A stretch of 26,160 nucleotides of DNA, from positions 1-26,160 of the IMG/VR virus record IMGVR_UViG_2657245132_000008, one strand, 5' to 3'. Each line of letters begins with the position of its first letter. Within the stretch, counting starts at the first letter, position 1. Of this stretch, positions 3,238 to 25,279 are shown piece by piece. The DNA comes from a virus (taxonomy: Duplodnaviria; Heunggongvirae; Uroviricota; Caudoviricetes). Position numbers and translations under genes: made by a program. Under the pieces are notes generated by a model that was given only the letters and a program-made list of their open reading frames with translations, was not told the DNA's origin and ran no database searches.

Positions 3238-3509
3238 GTATTCGTATTGAAATTGGCGAACGTTATGTCGTTACCAGTGACAGCTTTCAGTTTATTCTCC
3301 ACGAGAAAAAGAGAGCGGAAAGCGGTAAAAACGCCGGTCAGGAATGGCTGGCGGTGGTTGGTTATTACCCGAAATTAGGCCAGCTCGTTTCCGGCCTGAT
3401 GCATCACGATATTCTGACCGGAAGCGCAAAATCTTTTGCTGATTTAAACGCGCAGGTTGAGCAACTCAGCAAGCGTTGTTCAGAGGCTTTTGGCTCATAT
3501 GGCCGTTAA
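3234..3509 (+). CDS. Early-operon small protein, P2 orf83-like (91 aa)
   Basis: ATG at 3234; overlaps the start of A. Confidence 0.5.
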   Translation: MSIRIEIGERYVVTSDSFQFILHEKKRAESGKNAGQEWLAVVGYYPKLGQLVSGLMHHDILTGSAKSFADLNAQVEQLSKRCSEAFGSYGR

Positions 3510-5775
3510 AGCCTCCGGGCGTTTTGTCCCTCCGTCAGCATTTACCGCAGGCACCGGTAAGGCGTTTACCGGTGCTTATGCATGGAACGCGCCACGCGAG
3601 GCTGTCGGGCGCGAAAGACCTCTTACACGTGACGAGATGCGTCAGGTGCAAGGTGTTTTATCCACGATTAACCGCCTGCCTTACTTTTTGCGCTCGCTGT
3701 TTACTTCACGCTATGACTACATCCGGCGCAATAAAAGCCCGGTGCACGGGTTTTATTTCCTCACATCTACTTTTCAGCGTCGTTTATGGCCGCGCATTGA
3801 GCGTGTGAATCAGCGCCATGAAATGAACACCGACGCGTCGTTGCTGTTTCTGGCAGAGCGTGACCACTATGCGCGCCTGCCGGGAATGAATGACAAGGAG
3901 CTGAAAAAGTTTGCCGCCCGTATCTCATCGCAGCTTTTCATGATGTATGAGGAACTCTGCGATGCATGGGTTGATGCGCATGGTGAAAAAGAATCGCTGT
4001 TTACGGATGAGGCGCAGGCTCACCTGTATGGTCATGTTGCTGGCGCTGCACGTGCTTTCAATATTTCCCCGCTCTACTGGAAAAAATACCGTAAAGGACA
4101 GATGACCACGAGGCAGGCATATTCTGCCATTGCCCGCCTGTTTAACGATGAGTGGTGGACTCATCAGCTTAAAGGCCAGCGTATGCGCTGGCATGAGGCG
4201 TTACTGATAGCTGTCGGGGAGGTCAATAAAGACCGTTCTCCTTATGCCAGTAAACACGCCATTCGTGATGTGCGTGCGCGCCGCCAGGCAAATCTGGAAT
4301 TTCTTAAATCGTGTGACCTTGAAAACAGGGAAACCGGCGAGCGCATCGACCTTATCAGTAAGGTGATGGGCAGTATTTCTAATCCTGAAATTCGCCGGAT
4401 GGAGCTGATGAACACCATTGCCGGTATTGAGCGTTACGCCGCCGCAGAGGGTGATGTGGGGATGTTTATCACGCTGACCGCGCCGTCAAAGTATCACCCG
4501 ACACGTCAGGTCGGAAAAGGCGAAAGTAAAACCGTTCAGCTTAATCACGGCTGGAACGATGAGGCATTTAATCCAAAGGATGCGCAGCGTTATCTCTGCC
4601 GTATCTGGAGCCTGATGCGCACGGCATTCAAGGATAATGATTTACAGGTCTACGGTTTGCGAGTCGTCGAGCCACACCACGACGGAACGCCGCACTGGCA
4701 TATGATGCTTTTTTGTCATCCACGCCAGCGTAACCAGATTATCGAAATCATGCGTCGCTATGCGCTCAAAGAGGATGGCGACGAAAGAGGAGCCGCGCGA
4801 AACCGTTTTCAGGCAAAACACCTTAACCGGGGCGGTGCTGCGGGATATATCGCGAAATACATTTCAAAAAACATCGACGGCTATGCACTGGATGGTCAGC
4901 TCGATAACGACACCGGCAGGCCGCTGAAAGACACTGCAGCGGCTGTTACCGCATGGGCGTCAACGTGGCGCATTCCGCAATTTAAAACGGTTGGCCTGCC
5001 GACAATGGGGGCTTACCGTGAACTACGCAAATTGCCTCGCGGCGTCAGCATTGCTGATGAGTTTGACGAGCGCGTCGAGGCTGCACGCGCCGCCGCAGAC
5101 AGTGGTGATTTTGCGCTGTATATCAGCGCGCAGGGCGGGGCAAATGTCCCGCGCGATTGTCAGACTGTCAGGGTCGCCCGTAGTCTGTCGGATGACGTTA
5201 ACGAGTACGAGGAAGAAGTCGAGAGAGTGGTCGGCATTTACGCGCCGCATCTCGGCGCGCGTCATATTCATATCACCAGAACGACGGACTGGCGCATTGT
5301 GCCGAAAGTTCCGGTCGTTGAGCCTTTGACTTTAAAAAGCGGCATCGCCGCGCCTCGGAGTCCTGTCAATAACTGTGGAAAGCTCACCGGTGGTGATACT
5401 TCGTTACCAGCTCCCACACCTTCTGAGCACGCCGCAGCAGTGCTTAATCTGGTTGATGACGGTGTCATCGAATGGAATGACCCGGAGGTCGTGAGGGCGC
5501 TCAGAGGTGCATTAAAACATGGCCTGAGAACACCAAATCGCCAGCAAAGAAACGGAAGCCCGTTAAAACCGCATGAAATGGCACCATCGGCCAGACTGAC
5601 CCGGTCGGAACGAATGCAAATTACCCGTATCCGCGTTGACCTTGCTCAGAACGGTATCAGGCCGCAGCGATGGGAGCTTGAGGCGCTGGCGCGTGGGGCA
5701 ACCGTAAATTATGACGGGAAAAAATTCACGTATCCGGTCGCTAATGAGTGGTCGGTTTTTTCAATTAAACAATAA
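3499..5775 (+). CDS. A: Replication initiation endonuclease gpA (rolling-circle HUH/Rep-type; 758 aa from ATG 3499; track start 3457 is TTG)
   Basis: HUH-type motif PHWHMMLF (~4690-4710) and the paired-tyrosine motif GYIAKYISKN (Tyr codons ~4846 and ~4858), as in the phiX174 A / P2 A rolling-circle initiators. Size matches P2 A (761 aa, from memory). Confidence 0.9.
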   Translation: MAVKASGRFVPPSAFTAGTGKAFTGAYAWNAPREAVGRERPLTRDEMRQVQGVLSTINRLPYFLRSLFTSRYDYIRRNKSPVHGFYFLTSTFQRRLWPRIERVNQRHEMNTDASLLFLAERDHYARLPGMNDKELKKFAARISSQLFMMYEELCDAWVDAHGEKESLFTDEAQAHLYGHVAGAARAFNISPLYWKKYRKGQMTTRQAYSAIARLFNDEWWTHQLKGQRMRWHEALLIAVGEVNKDRSPYASKHAIRDVRARRQANLEFLKSCDLENRETGERIDLISKVMGSISNPEIRRMELMNTIAGIERYAAAEGDVGMFITLTAPSKYHPTRQVGKGESKTVQLNHGWNDEAFNPKDAQRYLCRIWSLMRTAFKDNDLQVYGLRVVEPHHDGTPHWHMMLFCHPRQRNQIIEIMRRYALKEDGDERGAARNRFQAKHLNRGGAAGYIAKYISKNIDGYALDGQLDNDTGRPLKDTAAAVTAWASTWRIPQFKTVGLPTMGAYRELRKLPRGVSIADEFDERVEAARAAADSGDFALYISAQGGANVPRDCQTVRVARSLSDDVNEYEEEVERVVGIYAPHLGARHIHITRTTDWRIVPKVPVVEPLTLKSGIAAPRSPVNNCGKLTGGDTSLPAPTPSEHAAAVLNLVDDGVIEWNDPEVVRALRGALKHGLRTPNRQQRNGSPLKPHEMAPSARLTRSERMQITRIRVDLAQNGIRPQRWELEALARGATVNYDGKKFTYPVANEWSVFSIKQ

Positions 5776-5919
5776 TGACTACTACTGCAGTGTTGTGGGA
5801 ATGTTATAGTGTTTGTGGAATTTTTCTATGAAAAACAATGAATTAATCTGTTTTTCATATTGAGCTAATTTTTTATGGCCACAGTTGTTAAAAAGTGAGA
5901 ACATAATCTTGTTCAAAAC

Positions 5920-5976
5920 CTGCTTCTATATACGGAGGCTTTCGCTATAATACGCGGTCGGTTTTAGGAGGGGATA
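5920..5976 (+). promoter_or_regulatory. Putative sigma70 promoter and RBS for the methyltransferase gene
   Basis: Perfect -10 hexamer TATAAT at ~5946-5951 and AGGAGGGG RBS at ~5966-5973, 4-5 nt before ATG 5977. The -35 is weak or unclear. Confidence 0.4.
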
Positions 5977-6921
5977 ATGCCAACAGTAGTTTCACTTTTT
6001 TCTGGATGCGGTGGTTCCGATGCGGGGGTTTTGAGAGCCGGCTTTGATGTGCTTATGGCCAACGATATCTTGCCGTATGCGCGCGATGTTTATATTGCCA
6101 ATCATCCAGAAACTGATTACATATTAGGCAATATTGCTGATGTAACTACTTTTCCTAAATCTGATTTGCTGGTAGGTTGTTATCCATGTCAGGGATTCAG
6201 CCAGGGTGGTGCGCGTAAAGCCGATCGAAAAATTAATACTCTTTATTTAGAGTTTGCTAGAGCTTTAAACAATATAAAGCCTAAAGCTTTTATAGTAGAA
6301 AACGTGTCTGGTATGGTTAGAAAAAATTTTGAGCATTTGTTATCTGACCAGATCAGGGTTTTTACTGAAGCAGGTTATACTGTTTCCGCAAAAGTTTTAA
6401 ATGCGGCTGAATATGGAGTAGCGCAGGAAAGAAAAAGAATATTTATCGTAGGAATCCGTAATGATTTCAAAGTTAAGTACGAGTTCCCTCAGCCAACTCA
6501 TGGGCCAGCAACTGGCGTCAACTATGTTACTATTAAAGATGCTATAGGGCATTTACCTGAATGGCCAGAAGGTGAATTTTATGATATGGGATTCCATTGG
6601 TATTATATGTCTCGCAATCGTCGCCAGGATTGGGATCAAATTTCAAAGACAATAGTTGCTAATGCAAGGCATATGCCGTTGCATCCTGTCAGTCCTCCGA
6701 TGGAGAAAGTAAGAACTGATGAATGGAGATTTGTTGAGGATCGGAGAGCTCGCAGATTCAGTTTTCGAGAGGCAGCACTATTACAAGGGTTTGAGGATCT
6801 AGTGTTTCCAGAAACAAATGCTGCAAGTCTTGGCATGAAATACACGGTGGTTGGTAATGCAGTGCCTCCGCCGCTTTTTGAAGCTGTAACGAAGGCATTG
6901 CCAATAGAATTATGGGATTGA
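5977..6921 (+). CDS. C5-cytosine DNA methyltransferase (Dcm-like, 314 aa)
   Basis: Conserved C5-MTase motifs in canonical order: I FSGCGG (aa 8-13), IV PCQGFS (catalytic Cys71, codon ~6187-6189), VI ENVSGM, VIII QERKRIFIVG, IX RRFSFREAALLQGFED, X VVGNAV. A variable region between VIII and IX would be the target-recognition domain. Located in an AT-rich cargo island. Confidence 0.9.
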   Translation: MPTVVSLFSGCGGSDAGVLRAGFDVLMANDILPYARDVYIANHPETDYILGNIADVTTFPKSDLLVGCYPCQGFSQGGARKADRKINTLYLEFARALNNIKPKAFIVENVSGMVRKNFEHLLSDQIRVFTEAGYTVSAKVLNAAEYGVAQERKRIFIVGIRNDFKVKYEFPQPTHGPATGVNYVTIKDAIGHLPEWPEGEFYDMGFHWYYMSRNRRQDWDQISKTIVANARHMPLHPVSPPMEKVRTDEWRFVEDRRARRFSFREAALLQGFEDLVFPETNAASLGMKYTVVGNAVPPPLFEAVTKALPIELWD

Positions 6922-6928
6922 TAAGCTA

Positions 6929-7921
6929 TTAAGGCTCTGGATTTAATGTATAAAGCTCTTCCTCAAATTCGCGAAACCAATCAGAGGTAGTTATCGCTTC
7001 CCATTGGTTTGCCTTATCAAGTAGATATATGATTCTCAACCTATCTAATAATAATACTCCAGCGGTTGCGTGTGTGCTTACCCATTCGCCATTTGCTTCC
7101 CGATAGAAAACAGGCGTGAACATTGTTGATGGATGCTGGAACGCAATTTGGAAATAGGTGGTCAGTTTTAACACGTTAGCCTCTAATGTTTTGCTTGGCC
7201 ACCCTGTTTCTTGTGCACCACATTGACCAAGAATTCCATAGTTGCTAGTTTGACCATCAGGAAATTCCACTGTAGCAATTAGGTCAAACCCGGCATCACC
7301 AGATGTGGGAGCTCTATTTATTTCCCTTGTGTTTAAACTACAAACTCCAAGATCTTTTCCTAAAGTTTGTAGAGCTGTCCGAAGATTTGTTCCATAATAA
7401 TTTTGCCTATCATCGGAGTTAGCATCAAAAATTCTTACGGTGCCATGTGCAGGTAAGAGAGAAATCATTGCTACTTTACATACTCTGGCAAAGCTCTTTG
7501 CCCAACGTTGTGCTGCTCCTTTAATCGACTTAAAGGATCTAAGTCTAGAGCAGCAAAGAAGAAAAACATATATTCGTTGTTGTTGGTTTAGATTTTCTTT
7601 AATAATTATCTCATCACCTGAAATTATAAATGGATATATTTTGCCAAGAGCACTTTCTCTATATTCGAGTTGTGTCCAAACATCTTCGAGTTGCTCTTCA
7701 AAACGATCATTTCTCTCAGCGTCTCCATTAATTTCTTCTTCAGAATTACATTCTTCATCAATTTCTTCAACGCTTGTTATGCCGAATTTTCTTACTGAAT
7801 CTAAATCATTTTTATGTAGTGAGTTACGTCCGGTATAATTAATTACCGTGAGTAACTCGGCTAAATCTGCAAACAAATGAGGAGAGTTGGGATGCATAAC
7901 TCCTACTTCAAAAGTCATCAT
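6929..7921 (-). CDS. Cargo protein of unknown function (~330 aa), second gene of a two-gene operon; strongly acidic N-proximal tract
   Basis: Long ORF in AT-rich DNA, start ATG at 7921 or 7918 (track start 7924 is GTG) overlapping the stop of the upstream gene by ~14 nt, which implies translational coupling. AGAGG/GAGGTG RBS just upstream. No catalytic motif recognisable by eye. Confidence 0.75.
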   Translation of the reverse strand: MMTFEVGVMHPNSPHLFADLAELLTVINYTGRNSLHKNDLDSVRKFGITSVEEIDEECNSEEEINGDAERNDRFEEQLEDVWTQLEYRESALGKIYPFIISGDEIIIKENLNQQQRIYVFLLCCSRLRSFKSIKGAAQRWAKSFARVCKVAMISLLPAHGTVRIFDANSDDRQNYYGTNLRTALQTLGKDLGVCSLNTREINRAPTSGDAGFDLIATVEFPDGQTSNYGILGQCGAQETGWPSKTLEANVLKLTTYFQIAFQHPSTMFTPVFYREANGEWVSTHATAGVLLLDRLRIIYLLDKANQWEAITTSDWFREFEEELYTLNPEP

Positions 7922-9029
7922 CACCTCTGCTATTTTTCTCTGCTATTTCAGAACCTATAAGCTTAATATGTTTATTGATTCTTCGTGCTACTTCATGGGC
8001 CTGTCTATCATACTCTACCGTGGCAACCATGCCTGCTGCATCTATCAAAGCTGCTTCAACTTGATAAAGTAACTGGAGAAAGTCCTTAGTAATATCAGAT
8101 GTCAATTGATAGGCAACTGCGAGTGGAGCCCCCATTCGGAATTGCTCCAATGCCTTAGGGCTACTTACAACAGCAGCTAATTCTCTTAAATTACGTGATT
8201 CTCCTACACGAGTTTTTTTATCCTCGCCTTTTTTATATAACCATTCAGTTAGTTCTTTTATTTCTTTGTTCTTTAAACTCTTAGAATTGATGATAGGATG
8301 ACTTGGTATTGTGTCTCCATCGTCTTCGATTGAAACTCCGACAAACTGGCCTAACCGCTCATCAGCAAGTGCTGTTGATAATACTGAAAATTTAATCGTT
8401 TCTTCATCTAGCTTTTCAATACCATAAAAATCATTTTTTTTAATGATTTCATACACCGCTAAAGCGTCTAGGTTACGCTTGATATGATCCCTACGACTGC
8501 CAATAGCTCTGGCAACCTCATAGTAGCGTAGCATTGGATCCAGATTTGCATTGGTATAATCAAAAAGCTGTTTAATATATCGAGCTTTTGATAAGGGTTC
8601 CCATTGTTTGACACCAGTAATATGTCTGAAACCAAGGTACGGAAGAATCTCTTCTCTTGTTTGGCGCTCAATGACAGGAACACGATCGACCGTATGTTTT
8701 GCATTTGATGCAATTTCTCGTAGTCGAGCACTTGGATTTTCACATAGTGTCGGATCGCGTAATAATTTGACCGCGGATAGGCGACGGTTTCCTTCAACTA
8801 CAATGTACTTCCCCGGCGCTCCACTATCAGGAATGACAATCAATGGTTCTCCAGGGAAAAAACCATTTTCCGCAATAGCACTCATTAGGTCTTCGATAGA
8901 TGTTGAGGTTGCTATGTAGTTAATCATTCCCAATTGGTCACGAGACACGCCTTCAGGAAGTCTTGGGTTTTCTGTGTCAAGTTCCAAATCATCTAGCGGA
9001 ACATAAAGTATTTCTGAATCAGCAATCAT
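7908..9029 (-). CDS. ParB/Srx-fold (DUF262/DndB/GmrS-like) domain protein (373 aa from ATG 9029), first gene of the cargo operon
   Basis: ATG at 9029 preceded by GGAGA with 5-nt spacer (track start 9068 is TTG). N-terminal segment PLIVIPDSGAPGKYIVVEGNRRLSAVKLL has the [ED]G-x-[RQ]-R-L arginine motif of the ParB N-terminal domain superfamily (codons ~8781-8796). The remainder is predicted helical and of unknown function. Confidence 0.75.
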   Translation of the reverse strand: MIADSEILYVPLDDLELDTENPRLPEGVSRDQLGMINYIATSTSIEDLMSAIAENGFFPGEPLIVIPDSGAPGKYIVVEGNRRLSAVKLLRDPTLCENPSARLREIASNAKHTVDRVPVIERQTREEILPYLGFRHITGVKQWEPLSKARYIKQLFDYTNANLDPMLRYYEVARAIGSRRDHIKRNLDALAVYEIIKKNDFYGIEKLDEETIKFSVLSTALADERLGQFVGVSIEDDGDTIPSHPIINSKSLKNKEIKELTEWLYKKGEDKKTRVGESRNLRELAAVVSSPKALEQFRMGAPLAVAYQLTSDITKDFLQLLYQVEAALIDAAGMVATVEYDRQAHEVARRINKHIKLIGSEIAEKNSRGDDDF

Positions 9030-9234
9030 CTGGATCTCCGTTGAACATGTCCACGAGAAGGAGCACAAAGTTATTTCATAACATGCAATATACTCATTCT
9101 GTAGCCATAAATGAATTATTCATGATGTAAGATTCGCGTTGATGTGCGTGAATTCGCAAGTAATTATACAGCAAGGTTTGATTGGGTATCGTCAGCACCA
9201 GTGCGGTTCCAACGTACTCATGCAACTGCATTAA

Positions 9235-9258
9235 AACCGCCCCATGAAGCGGGCGGGC
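9235..9258 (-). terminator. Hairpin plus T-run reading leftward, abutting cos (candidate insulator between the late operon and the cargo operon)
   Basis: On the minus strand CCGCCCGCTTCATGGGGCGG is followed by TTTT (~6-bp GC stem). Confidence 0.35.
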
Positions 9259-9274
9259 GAGGCGGGGAAAGCAC
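9256..9274. other. cos cohesive-end sequence (P2-type 19-nt cos core)
   Basis: GGCGAGGCGGGGAAAGCAC at ~9256-9274 matches the P2 19-nt cohesive end as I recall it, and sits between the cargo island and Q exactly where P2 cos lies. GT-rich repeats follow at 9280-9410. Confidence 0.6.
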
Positions 9275-9416
9275 TGCGCGCTGGCGGTGGTGCTGATTTT
9301 ATTTTTTCAGCGTCTGAGCGCGTCGTGATGGCGTTTAGAGTGTGCGCCGGGGCGTTGGTGTGTCTGCGGGGTGTTTTGTGCGGTGGTGAGCGTTTGAGGG
9401 TGTGATGACGGGGTGT

Positions 9417-9438
9417 AAAAAAGCCGCCCGCAGGCGGC
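9417..9438 (-). terminator. Rho-independent terminator of the leftward Q-P operon
   Basis: Minus strand reads GCCGCC-TGCG-GGCGGC followed by TTTTTT, immediately 3' of the Q stop (9444). Confidence 0.6.
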
Positions 9439-9443
9439 GATGT

Positions 9444-10478
9444 TCAGCCGTTGTCAGTGTCCAGTGAGTAGTTTTTAAAGCGGATGACCTCCTGACCGAG
9501 CCAGCCGTTTATTTCCCGAATCCTGTCCTGTAACGGGATAAGCTCATTGCGGACAAAGACCTTTGCCACTTTCTCAATATCACCCAGCGACCCGACGTTC
9601 TCCGGCTTGCCGCCCATCAACTGAAAGGGGATGCGGTGCGCGTCCAGCAGGTCAGCGGCGCTGGCTTTTTTGATATTAAAAAAATCGTCCTTCGTTGCGA
9701 CTTCACTGAGCGGGATAATTTTAATGCCGTCGGCTTTCCCCTGTGGGGCATAGAGAAACAGATTTTTAAAGTTGTTGCGGCCTTTCGACTTCACCATGTT
9801 TTCGCGGAGCATTTCGATATCGTTGCGATCCTGCACGGCATCAGTGACGTACATGATGTATCCGGCATGTGCGCCGTTTTCGTAATACTTGCGGCGGAAC
9901 AGCGTGGCCGACTCATTCAGCCAGGCAGAGTTAAGGGCGCTGAGATATTCCGGCAGGCCGTACAACTCCTGATTAATATCCGGCTCCAGCAGGTGAAACA
10001 CGGAGCCGGGCGCGAAGGCTGTCGGTTCGTTGAAGGACGGCACCCACCAGTAAACATCCTCTTCCACCCCACGGCGGGTATATTTTGCCGGTGAGGTTTC
10101 CAGTCTGATGACCTTACCGGTGGTGCTGTAACGCTTTTCCAGAAACGCATTACCGAACACCAGAAAATCCAGCACAAAGCGGCTGAAATCCTGTTGTGAA
10201 AGCCACGGATGCGGGATAAATGTCGAGGCCAGAATATTACGTTTGACGTAAATCGGTGAGCTGTGATGTACGGCAGCACGCAGGCTTTTTGCCAGACCGG
10301 TAAAGCTGACCGGTGGCTCATACCATCTGCCGTTACTGATGCACTCGACGTAATCCAGAATGTCACGGCGGTCGAGTACCGGCACCGGCTCACCAAAGGT
10401 GAATGCCTCCATTTTCGGGGCGCTGGCGGTCATTGTTTTTGCCGCAGGTTGCGGTGTTTTCCCTTTTTTCTTGCTCAT
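9444..10478 (-). CDS. Q: Portal protein gpQ (344 aa)
   Basis: Size identical to P2 Q (344 aa, from memory); adjacent to cos; start codon overlaps the stop of P. Confidence 0.85.
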   Translation of the reverse strand: MSKKKGKTPQPAAKTMTASAPKMEAFTFGEPVPVLDRRDILDYVECISNGRWYEPPVSFTGLAKSLRAAVHHSSPIYVKRNILASTFIPHPWLSQQDFSRFVLDFLVFGNAFLEKRYSTTGKVIRLETSPAKYTRRGVEEDVYWWVPSFNEPTAFAPGSVFHLLEPDINQELYGLPEYLSALNSAWLNESATLFRRKYYENGAHAGYIMYVTDAVQDRNDIEMLRENMVKSKGRNNFKNLFLYAPQGKADGIKIIPLSEVATKDDFFNIKKASAADLLDAHRIPFQLMGGKPENVGSLGDIEKVAKVFVRNELIPLQDRIREINGWLGQEVIRFKNYSLDTDNG

Positions 10479-24523: not shown

Positions 24524-25279
24524 CTATTCCTTGGCCTCTTTATTTTTCTCGCCATCGCCAATGTAAAGAAGATAATCGTTTAAGGATATCCTTCCGGAGG
24601 GGCCGGTCCATGTTATCAATCCGTTCTCACGAAGATTAAATAATGCTTCCATGAACTCATTATCGTTAAAAGAATGATCCTCCGAGAACAGAATGTTCAT
24701 TTTTCTCAATAGTTCTTCCACTTTAATCTTTTCATATCGCCTTATCAGACTTAGTGCTTTACGACGCATTAAGATTGTAGGTACTGCTTGTGAACGAATG
24801 GTTTGTTGTATTCCACTATCAAGAACTTTCTTGATTTTACTCTCTAACTCTTTGATTTTAGTTTCATTATCTCCATTGGACTTAAGCTTTTCATCAACGA
24901 TGCAAATAATTTCCTGACTAATGCTGTTCTTGAGTTCGTTTATTTTTTCTTCATTGTTGAGAATCTCATCAGAGCTTCCTGCATGGGGTTTTTTCCATAT
25001 GTGCTGACGCATATCCGTTACCGTATCTCTCATCATAGAGAATGTATCTGAATATAACTTGTCAAATATTTTTTCCAGTCGTTCGACACTTGCCTGAATG
25101 TCTTTTGCTGCTTTAGTTGTCTCTTTAGAAGCCTCATTCGACATTTTATAAAAAACAAAAGAAAGCCAAATAGCCCCAATGGCGAGTACTAATGAGGCTA
25201 TTGTGGCAATAAAACCTATTATTGTTATTGCTGTATCTAATGTACCTGCTGCATCTGTGACTACTGTTTCTGCTGCCAT
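24524..25279 (-). CDS. Membrane-anchored coiled-coil protein of unknown function (251 aa)
   Basis: ATG at 25279 with GAGGA upstream. Hydrophobic N-terminal helix (TAITIIGFIATIASLVLAIGAIWLSFVFY), then a Lys/Glu-rich region with heptad-like periodicity (...INELKNSISQEI...KIKELESKIKKVL...). Single gene in AT-rich DNA on the strand opposite the tail genes. Confidence 0.75.
   Translation of the reverse strand: MAAETVVTDAAGTLDTAITIIGFIATIASLVLAIGAIWLSFVFYKMSNEASKETTKAAKDIQASVERLEKIFDKLYSDTFSMMRDTVTDMRQHIWKKPHAGSSDEILNNEEKINELKNSISQEIICIVDEKLKSNGDNETKIKELESKIKKVLDSGIQQTIRSQAVPTILMRRKALSLIRRYEKIKVEELLRKMNILFSEDHSFNDNEFMEALFNLRENGLITWTGPSGRISLNDYLLYIGDGEKNKEAKE

Follow-up and report, generated by a model that had tools for sequence, protein, structure and literature searches.

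The window analysed here is a stretch of 26,160 nucleotides (positions 1 to 26,160 of the IMG/VR virus record IMGVR_UViG_2657245132_000008). It is a P2-like prophage in which a cargo island, flanked by gene A and the portal gene Q, contains three genes: a C5 DNA methyltransferase on the plus strand and, on the minus strand, two open reading frames (ORFs) of 330 and 373 amino acids. We propose, with moderate confidence, that this triad would constitute a restriction–modification (R-M)-like module, a three-gene variant of the PD-lambda-5 defence system situated in hotspot 1 of P2. The proposal is based on the tight linkage of the three genes, an active-looking methyltransferase, a ParB/Srx protein that is co-translated with a nuclease-like protein, the homology with PD-lambda-5, and the location in a defence hotspot.

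An earlier note on this DNA had described a two-gene anti-phage unit. The two long, overlapping minus-strand ORFs are indeed there (7908-9029, 373 amino acids, and 6929-7921, 330 amino acids), but the unit has a third member, the convergent methyltransferase gene at 5977-6921, which is linked to the pair in 45 of 48 variants. This linkage argues for an R-M-like or PD-lambda-5-like logic rather than for a plain Type IV pair. A nucleic-acid-targeting anti-phage role, as suggested in that note, remains the best reading, since the ParB-like protein is homologous to component A of the validated PD-lambda-5 system. The main features of the cassette are as follows:

5977-6921, plus strand: C5 DNA cytosine methyltransferase, 314 amino acids (PF00145, 5.5e-65; TIGR00675, 1.4e-56)
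6929-7921, minus strand: partner protein, 330 amino acids from ATG 7921, or 329 amino acids from ATG 7918 (the NCBI call is 329 amino acids)
7019-7054, minus strand: partner residues 290-301, LLLDRLRIIYLL, with invariant D293, R294 and R296, matching the C-terminal "vLvDGxrLvxLm" helix of Mrr
7181-7303, minus strand: candidate nuclease core of the partner, S207-G-D209-A-G-F-D213 ... G232-Q233-C-G-A-Q-E238 ... W241-P-S-K244-T-L-E247 (from conservation and an MspJI alignment)
7908-7924, minus strand: stop/start overlap of the ParB-like gene and the partner gene (read from the sequence)
7908-9029, minus strand: ParB/Srx-fold protein, 373 amino acids, from the ATG at 9029
7911-7925, minus strand: acidic C-terminal tip GDDDF of the ParB-like protein, conserved in 34 of 35 core-clade homologues
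8781-8795, minus strand: EGNRR, residues 79-83 of the ParB-like protein, the arginine pair of ParB box II or P-motif (read from the sequence)

The three proteins of the cassette

The ParB-like protein begins with a ParB N-terminal domain of the nucleotide-binding type; a helical middle that resembles a helix–turn–helix (HTH) follows, and two long helices at the C-terminus lead into an acidic tail. It contains the arginine motif VVEGNRRLSAV to which the earlier note had drawn attention, and its ENPRLP (residues 20-25) resembles ParB box I; E79, G80, N81, R82, R83, N21, and P22 are invariant in 35 homologues. A fold search gave KorB, Spo0J, Srx, and SerK as its structural neighbours, and the N-terminal ParB fold together with the box II arginine motif places the protein in the ParB/Srx superfamily; the matches to Pfam ParB_N (0.12) and TIGR00180 (5.4e-08) are both under their cut-offs. 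Hence, of the description "ParB/DUF262-like" given previously, the ParB part (more exactly, ParB/Srx) stands, and the DUF262 part falls, there being no Pfam match to DUF262 at E ≤ 1. The databases name some homologues "chromosome partitioning protein ParB", and, in RefSeq, the ParB-like protein is a "ParB N-terminal domain-containing protein" and the partner a "hypothetical protein".

The acidic tip has the consensus (D/E)DD(D/E)F in the core clade and is missing in the clades of the phages Wphi and D14A. It resembles the C-terminal tip of SSB, which docks partner proteins, and it could be a handle for the partner nuclease or, alternatively, an SSB mimic. The idea that the C-terminal helices form a degenerate HEPN domain was rejected: RRINKH fits Rx4H, but the His is an Asn in most homologues, and profile support is absent.

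The top named match of the ParB-like protein is the PADLOC model PD-Lambda-5_A (PDLC04013; 6.6e-29, profile positions 7-277 of 440), and 24 further PD-Lambda-5_A models in PADLOC match it too. PD-lambda-5 was found by Vassallo et al. (2022, PMC9519451) in E. coli ECOR7 as a two-gene system, listed as "ParB/HEPN, methyltransferase", and was validated; it acts on nine out of ten phages, including unmodified ones, and the reading of these authors was "RM+Abi" (Abi, abortive infection). The system was cloned in an mrr-deleted host, which it needed (PMC9519451), and its methyltransferase is therefore taken as active. In our searches, PADLOC-complete systems (A plus B) were located in Marinobacter phage AS1 and Vibrio phage ValB1MD-2, and hhalign aligned the family of the window protein with the A protein of AS1 at a probability of 98.8%, over residues 7-201 only. 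In ValB1MD-2 (L084, 2947-4499), the A homologue consists of two ORFs (252 and 265 amino acids) that match the N- and C-terminal halves of a single PADLOC A model; the gene is naturally split or has suffered a frameshift.

The cassette and PD-lambda-5 thus share a prophage-borne protein with a ParB N-domain, homologous over its first 200 or so residues, and a DNA methyltransferase; bona fide PD-lambda-5 systems also occur in phages of the P2 family (Peduoviridae). However, the A protein of PD-lambda-5 has some 450-500 amino acids with a C-terminal half of the HEPN type, whereas the window protein has 373 and no Pfam HEPN match; the separate Mrr-like protein of 330 amino acids has no counterpart in PD-lambda-5, so that there are three genes here and two there; and component B is an N6-adenine methyltransferase of the D12 class, whereas the cassette enzyme is of the C5 type (PF00145). 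PD-Lambda-5_B is not among the 25 best PADLOC matches of the latter, while true B proteins score 1e-103 to 1e-118. As two of these three sequence features are lacking, the cassette is a relative of PD-lambda-5 and not a member of the system as defined.

The partner protein has no significant match in Pfam, NCBIfam, or PADLOC. Its 235 homologues in a set of 5.8 billion proteins are, without exception, called "hypothetical", and an exhaustive search gave 868 representative clusters (50% identity) at E ≤ 1e-3, all of about 320-360 amino acids and none fused. For both the ParB-like protein and the partner, there are hundreds of full-length homologues at 50-65% identity in the gamma- and beta-proteobacteria. 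From its N-terminus, the partner has a helix, then an acidic linker and a domain like a winged helix, and finally a candidate divergent nuclease domain of the Mrr/MspJI type. Among 58 sequences with identities down to 22%, D19, E22, D209, D213, Q233, W241, D293, R294, and R296 are invariant and K244 is near-invariant.

Three independent tests bear on the nature of the C-terminal domain, and each of them is weak. Firstly, a broad profile of the partner family, run against all of the PDB sequences, reached MspJI (4f0p) at E 0.0078, and the SGDxGxD...GQC of the partner was aligned to the SSGDGGVD334F...GQ355AK357 of MspJI such that D213 and Q233 fall on D334 and Q355, two residues whose replacement (D334A and Q355A) abolishes MspJI activity (PMC2938202). 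This broader profile was needed, the profile of close homologues giving only noise in the same PDB search. Secondly, Mrr_cat (PF04471) is the top Pfam family among the members of the partner family, at a sub-threshold level (2 of 58 matched, best E 0.005). Thirdly, when the family profile was compared by hhalign with E. coli Mrr and with an alignment of Mrr sequences, the probability for E. coli Mrr was 47-52%, and the match included the C-terminal LxDxxRLxxL helix, to which LLLDRLRIIYLL corresponds; the alignment comprised close Mrr homologues only, and the probability was no better than about 50%. These tests (MspJI, Mrr_cat, and Mrr) point to the superfamily of Mrr/MspJI-type nucleases, of which the partner is a candidate member; it is probably a winged helix followed by a divergent Mrr-type nuclease of the PD-(D/E)xK fold. 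The earlier note had seen no recognisable catalytic motif in this protein and had spoken of a non-canonical effector; a weak motif of the nuclease type is in fact present, and the effector is probably a divergent winged-helix protein with an Mrr-like PD-(D/E)xK nuclease.

Mrr and MspJI combine, as the partner probably does, a domain for DNA binding at the N-terminus (a winged helix in Mrr) with a C-terminal D...(Q/E)xK catalytic domain, and relatives of MspJI often adjoin C5 methyltransferases and vsr (PMC2938202). The differences are that the similarity of the partner is under all of the curated thresholds, that its lysine is off the canonical position, and that it is obligately paired with a ParB-like protein.

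The nearest solved relative of the methyltransferase is M.HaeIII (1.4e-48), which it matches from end to end with the target-recognition region included, and the motifs FSGCGG, PCQ (with the catalytic Cys71), ENV, QERKR, REAALLQGF, and GNAVPP are intact in the translation. It therefore looks like a functional, short C5 enzyme similar to M.HaeIII with its catalytic motifs intact. It is also the most conserved member of the cassette, with 62-77% identity where the pair is down to 25-42%. Vsr genes are found near it in some loci.

Linkage across genomes and the P2 hotspot

The linkage of the three genes was examined in 82 loci, containing 55 distinct variants of the partner, which were taken from one genome per species, from IMG/VR, and from added distant representatives, and whose ORFs were scored with our own profiles. 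The ParB-like gene lies directly upstream of the partner gene in all 50 testable distinct variants. A C5 methyltransferase is in the locus in 45 of the 48 testable variants (convergent and downstream in 41, same-strand downstream in two, same-strand upstream in two); the samples were found with core-clade motifs, are hence biased to the core clade and phylogenetically clumped, and the 45 of 48 are non-independent events. The linkage holds in Pseudomonas, Burkholderia, Acinetobacter, Halomonas, and the enterobacteria, as well as on prophages and islands. The same order, with the ParB-like gene, the partner gene after a 14-nt overlap, and a convergent PF00145 methyltransferase gene, exists beside an integrase in Pseudomonas nitroreducens, in a Burkholderia vietnamiensis prophage, and, between the portal gene and gene A, in Salmonella P2-like prophages. 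Phage Wphi has it as gp98, gp96, and mth (34% identity for the ParB-like protein, 25% for the partner, and 76% for the methyltransferase), as does Pseudomonas phage vB_PaeM-D14A (35%, 26%, and 64%, respectively). Metagenomic operons with partner identities of 24-31% contain the ParB, partner, and C5 methyltransferase genes in other orders, some of them with Vsr and an HNH gene as well. An HNH nuclease (HNH_2 or HNH_5) was observed in or beside the triad in three loci (L012, 6997-7929; L081, 2993-4229; L083, 713-2076), two of which also have Vsr; each of these consists of a methyltransferase, the ParB–partner pair, and a second nuclease.

Exceptions to the linkage exist. Intact pairs that have no C5 methyltransferase within 4-6 kb are those of L011, L021, and a Persicobacter plasmid (L087); L024 has none within this distance either, and its partner ORF is truncated at the C-terminus, while L015, L016, and L022 lack the gene within shorter flanks. 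Such pairs lie at different chromosomal sites in several Methylococcales genomes (Crenothrix among them); another genome has one next to a Type I hsdS gene, and the Persicobacter megaplasmid has one as well.

Of 5426 complete E. coli genomes, 48 contain the exact cassette (3.67 kb, at least 99% identity), ATCC 8739 and NCTC8623 among them, and so does Yersinia phage HQ103; the methyltransferase family, counting the exact, the 64%-identity, the Wphi-type, and the inverted fourth type, is found in 226 of these genomes (about 4%). In E. coli, this P2 hotspot harbours at least four diverged versions of the cassette, the fourth and more divergent one being in inverted orientation in strain CE2050 (L090). 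The family is nearly absent from plasmids. Decay takes several forms. Yersinia phage L-413C (L030, 207-1199) retains only a truncated ParB-like ORF (62% identity over residues 9-303) and has lost the partner and methyltransferase genes by deletion; L-413C is the classical diagnostic phage of Y. pestis. One viral contig has an interrupted partner gene and an intact methyltransferase gene; E. coli GF54 (L089) has IS1 inside the ParB-like gene, with the partner and methyltransferase genes intact; and in E. coli WCHEC020031 (L088), an intact triad of the Wphi type persists in a decayed remnant of P2 whose gene A and portal gene are truncated.

In the window, the island and its surroundings are organised as follows:

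3457-5775, plus strand: gene A (Pfam Phage_GPA, 2.8e-124)
5776-9255, no strand: AT-rich cargo island, from the end of gene A to cos, P2 hotspot 1 (GC profile)
9036-9039, minus strand: Shine-Dalgarno sequence GGAG, 6 nt before the ATG (9029) of the ParB-like gene (read from the sequence)
9087-9170, minus strand: region upstream of the ParB-like gene, with two candidate -10 elements (sequence and alignment)
9444-10478, minus strand: portal gene Q (Pfam Phage_portal)

The GC content is 0.35-0.43 over approximately 5500-9000 and 0.52-0.60 in the flanking phage genes. The island has a 100% match in the Yersinia phage HQ103 record, which terminates at window position 9255, where it adjoins a 19-mer (9256-9274) that we take to be the P2 cos sequence. 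The GC profile, the Phage_GPA and portal matches, and the end of the HQ103 record together bear out the placement of the pair in AT-rich DNA between gene A and cos, at the P2 hotspot.

Between the minus-strand genes there is an overlap of 11-14 nt, depending on whether the TGA at 7910-7908 is set against ATG 7921 or ATG 7918; GTG 7924 is a further in-frame start of the partner. A 14-nt overlap is also found in the distant Pseudomonas, Burkholderia, and Salmonella loci, and the coupled operon proposed previously is supported. AGAGG at 7928-7924 (minus strand) is a candidate ribosome-binding site of the partner gene, and the GGAG in front of the ParB-like gene is the good ribosome-binding site that the note had reported; a longer alternative start of this gene, TTG 9068, has none. 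The stops of the partner and methyltransferase genes are 7 nt apart. A sigma-70 consensus scan upstream of the ParB-like gene gave no full or convincing site. One candidate, the extended -10 element TGTATAAT at 9170-9163 (minus strand), is present in the window only, and another, TATATT at 9092-9087 (minus strand), is kept in the two closest cassette variants; otherwise, the aligned upstream regions of related cassettes have little conservation.

Three other observations concern the neighbourhood. A block, ATGCAnnTTnATGCA, at approximately 9143-9157 (minus strand) and about 100 nt inside cos, is conserved in all of the aligned P2-like loci (including L031, L035, L036, and L038), although the neighbouring cargo DNA differs; it is probably a packaging site or a site flanking cos and, as such, part of the phage backbone and not of the cassette. 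The terminator-like TAATGAGTGGTCGGTTTT after gene A (5742-5759) is repeated at 83% identity just 5' of the methyltransferase start (5948-5965), and this repeat may be a recombination scar at the edge of the cassette. Finally, an ORF of 251 amino acids (24524-25279, minus strand) lies in a second AT-rich patch (GC 0.36-0.40) right after the tail-fibre genes, at the place of the second P2 cargo hotspot (Z/fun); this further cargo gene is without a match in PADLOC and has only sub-threshold ones in Pfam (MCM4 winged helix, 8.6e-4).

The cassette is not entirely new to the record. Rousset (2022) gave it in a list of P2 hotspot loci as "DNA_methylase + hypothetical + ParBc"; it was untested there, and the main text contains no mention of ParB or a methyltransferase. 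The genes gp98, gp96, and mth of Wphi, a phage sequenced long ago, were deposited as plain ORFs. Our literature searches found neither a description of the triad nor an experiment on it, nor an R-M system whose restriction half combines a ParB fold with a nuclease; a Tn-seq study of Pectobacteriaceae and DefensePredictor proved to have no bearing on it. The epithet "undescribed" in the earlier note calls for some qualification, given the entry in that list and the presence of the cassette in Wphi.

A proposed restriction–modification module and its rivals

An R-M-like module could operate as follows. The C5 methyltransferase would place 5-methylcytosine (m5C) at a short site on the DNA of the lysogen and its prophage as a mark of self. 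The protein of the ParB/Srx fold would bind DNA via its ParB-type middle domain, using its nucleotide-binding N-domain as a switch, and would, we infer, discriminate DNA that lacks this mark. Being co-translated with the partner, it would probably recruit or license it, and the partner, with its divergent Mrr/MspJI-type core, would then cut the invading DNA. In comparison with PD-lambda-5, the fused HEPN effector would have been swapped for a separate protein of the DNase type, and the N6-methyladenine (m6A) methyltransferase for one that makes m5C. The broad phage range of PD-lambda-5 fits a logic in which "unmarked" means "foreign" better than it fits a dependence on modification, and the combination of a conserved methyltransferase with fast-diverging partner proteins is the pattern of R-M systems.

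Other features are those of Type II and Type III R-M systems, namely, the active-looking methyltransferase tightly linked, and often convergent, to a nuclease gene, the occasional Vsr and upstream HTH gene, the carriage by temperate phages, and the decay of the nuclease side in some genomes, where the methyltransferase is kept. In contrast to these systems, the restriction half is composed of two proteins, and about 10% of the variants lack a nearby methyltransferase. To our knowledge, the nucleotide-switch fold of ParB/Srx has no precedent in any R-M type.

Several results weigh against an R-M-like module. The position of the canonical lysine (Gln+2) is Gly235 in the partner and Gly or Ala in every member of its family. 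The migration of catalytic residues is known in PD-(D/E)xK enzymes, and K244, which is invariant or near-invariant and 11 residues after the conserved Gln, may be a substitute. No nuclease was matched in the fold searches on the partner, the AlphaFold2 (AF2) model of which has a confidence score (predicted local distance difference test, pLDDT) below 50 across residues 224-292, no curated family threshold was passed, and the hhalign probability was only about 50%. Nor do the PADLOC models count the partner or the methyltransferase as parts of PD-lambda-5: those tested match only the N-terminal half of the ParB-like protein and a generic methyltransferase, the partner going unrecognised. The intact pairs without a nearby methyltransferase are awkward too, since a classical restriction enzyme without its methyltransferase should be lethal unless a methyltransferase acts in trans. 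Mrr-type catalytic domains are, moreover, typical of modification-dependent enzymes. Lastly, the direction of the discrimination, towards unmethylated rather than modified DNA, is something that we infer.

A bolder version, which we consider doubtful, is that the cassette represents a new mechanistic type of R-M, in which a nucleotide-gated ParB clamp loads only at sites without m5C, spreads or slides from there, and licenses an Mrr-like nuclease with a shifted lysine. If this were true, the CTP-switch logic of ParB would have been reused for the discrimination between self and non-self, and PD-lambda-5 would be explained in this way too, as might the pairing, noted long ago and left unexplained, of Mrr/MspJI-type nucleases with C5 methyltransferases.

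The main rival, unlikely in our estimation, is a Type IV-like activity, in which a ParB-like NTPase and an Mrr-like nuclease attack modified phage DNA (containing hydroxymethylcytosine (hmC), glucosyl-hmC, or m5C or m6A in foreign contexts), as GmrSD and McrBC do. The nuclease would ignore the mark of the adjacent C5 methyltransferase, which would be there for protection from Type II enzymes of the host or as the relic of an ancestral R-M system. Mrr and MspJI, the best matches of the partner, are both modification-dependent, an NTPase plus a nuclease is the layout of GmrSD and McrBC, intact pairs have no methyltransferase nearby in several lineages, and some loci have HNH_2 or HNH_5 nucleases and Vsr beside the triad. 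In the MspJI family, about half of the members adjoin a C5 methyltransferase and vsr, which the discoverers of the family considered non-incidental and left unexplained (PMC2938202). However, the linkage to the methyltransferase in 45 of 48 variants is far tighter than this half and survives both changes in gene order and partner identities of 25%, with the methyltransferase as the best-conserved member. The homologous PD-lambda-5, which has a methyltransferase and acts on nine of ten phages, unmodified ones included, is hard to square with a dependence on modification, and neither SRA, EVE, nor another modified-base reader domain was detected in the ParB-like protein or the partner.

Within the Type IV class, the analogy with GmrS/GmrD made in the earlier note fails on both of the defining domains. 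GmrSD and BrxU do combine a NTPase module of the ParB superfamily with a nuclease module and have examples on prophages and in defence islands, but the cassette has no DUF262 signature, its motif being the ParB-type EGNRR, and no DUF1524 or HNH match was obtained across the 58 members of the partner family; GmrSD also lacks a cognate methyltransferase, whereas one almost always lies beside the cassette pair. Membership of GmrSD was accordingly dropped, and so was identity with DndB, there being no dnd or ssp genes in the window or the related loci. For the pair, no confident match emerged to a characterised family such as these or a partition ParB with ParA/parS.

The "Abi" half of "RM+Abi" leads to a third explanation, that of abortive infection or addiction, which is improbable. 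The nuclease would hit the DNA (or RNA) of the host itself when infection or the loss of the prophage perturbs the methylation state or the methyltransferase, and the result could be post-segregational killing that stabilises the prophage. The authors of PD-lambda-5 themselves proposed RM+Abi, the compact, convergent layout is like that of addictive Type II R-M systems, the triad is intact in a degraded P2 remnant, and, in some genomes, insertion sequence elements break the ParB-like or partner gene and leave the methyltransferase gene intact. Neither HEPN nor another typical Abi effector is found in the cassette, however, and the intact pairs without a methyltransferase speak against constitutive self-toxicity.

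Less probable again is a function outside defence, in DNA modification or counter-defence, with the ParB-like protein activating or loading the methyltransferase and the partner serving as an accessory DNA-binding protein. ParB-like activators of DNA-modifying enzymes have been documented for phage thymine dioxygenases (PMC13229309) and as DpdB and DndB (PMC12839542), ParB–methyltransferase fusions are enriched in prophages (PMC12704722), and the partner is without the canonical catalytic lysine. The cassette does resemble the loci of the 5mYOX-associated ParB, DndB, and DpdB insofar as a gene for a ParB-fold protein lies beside that for a DNA-modifying enzyme in a phage or defence locus. It differs from them in the translational coupling of the ParB-like gene, which is to the gene of the nuclease-like partner and not to that of the methyltransferase, and in the persistence of the ParB-like gene, with the partner, where no methyltransferase is present. 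Moreover, methyltransferases of the M.HaeIII type require no activator, the acidic, Gln, and Lys residues of the partner are invariant down to 22% identity and are arranged much as in a nuclease, and the site is a known defence hotspot.

A partition ParB with an accessory protein, to which the database names and the fold might point, is effectively refuted, given that no ParA gene is near in any annotated context, that a repeat search gave no repeated, inverted parS-like site in 5700-9460, that P2 integrates and needs no partition, that the family is essentially absent from plasmids, and that TIGR00180 and Pfam ParB_N are under their cut-offs.

Implications

The family of the cassette is common, and its partner protein is missed by the PADLOC models tested, so censuses of defence systems are likely to miss it. 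As a relative of PD-lambda-5, the cassette amounts to a natural "domain swap": the two have in common the ParB-like front end and a methyltransferase, and they differ in the effector (HEPN versus Mrr-like) and in the methylation chemistry (m6A versus m5C). This swap points to the ParB-like module as the sensor shared by a broader group of defences linked to methylation, and the cassette offers a simple E. coli system for the role of the ParB/CTPase fold in immunity. It also provides a handle on the frequent adjacency of Mrr-type nucleases and C5 methyltransferases, the reason for which was left open in 2010. A prophage that adds both an m5C mark and a nuclease would affect transformation, the host range in phage therapy, and the interpretation of methylomes in its host strains.

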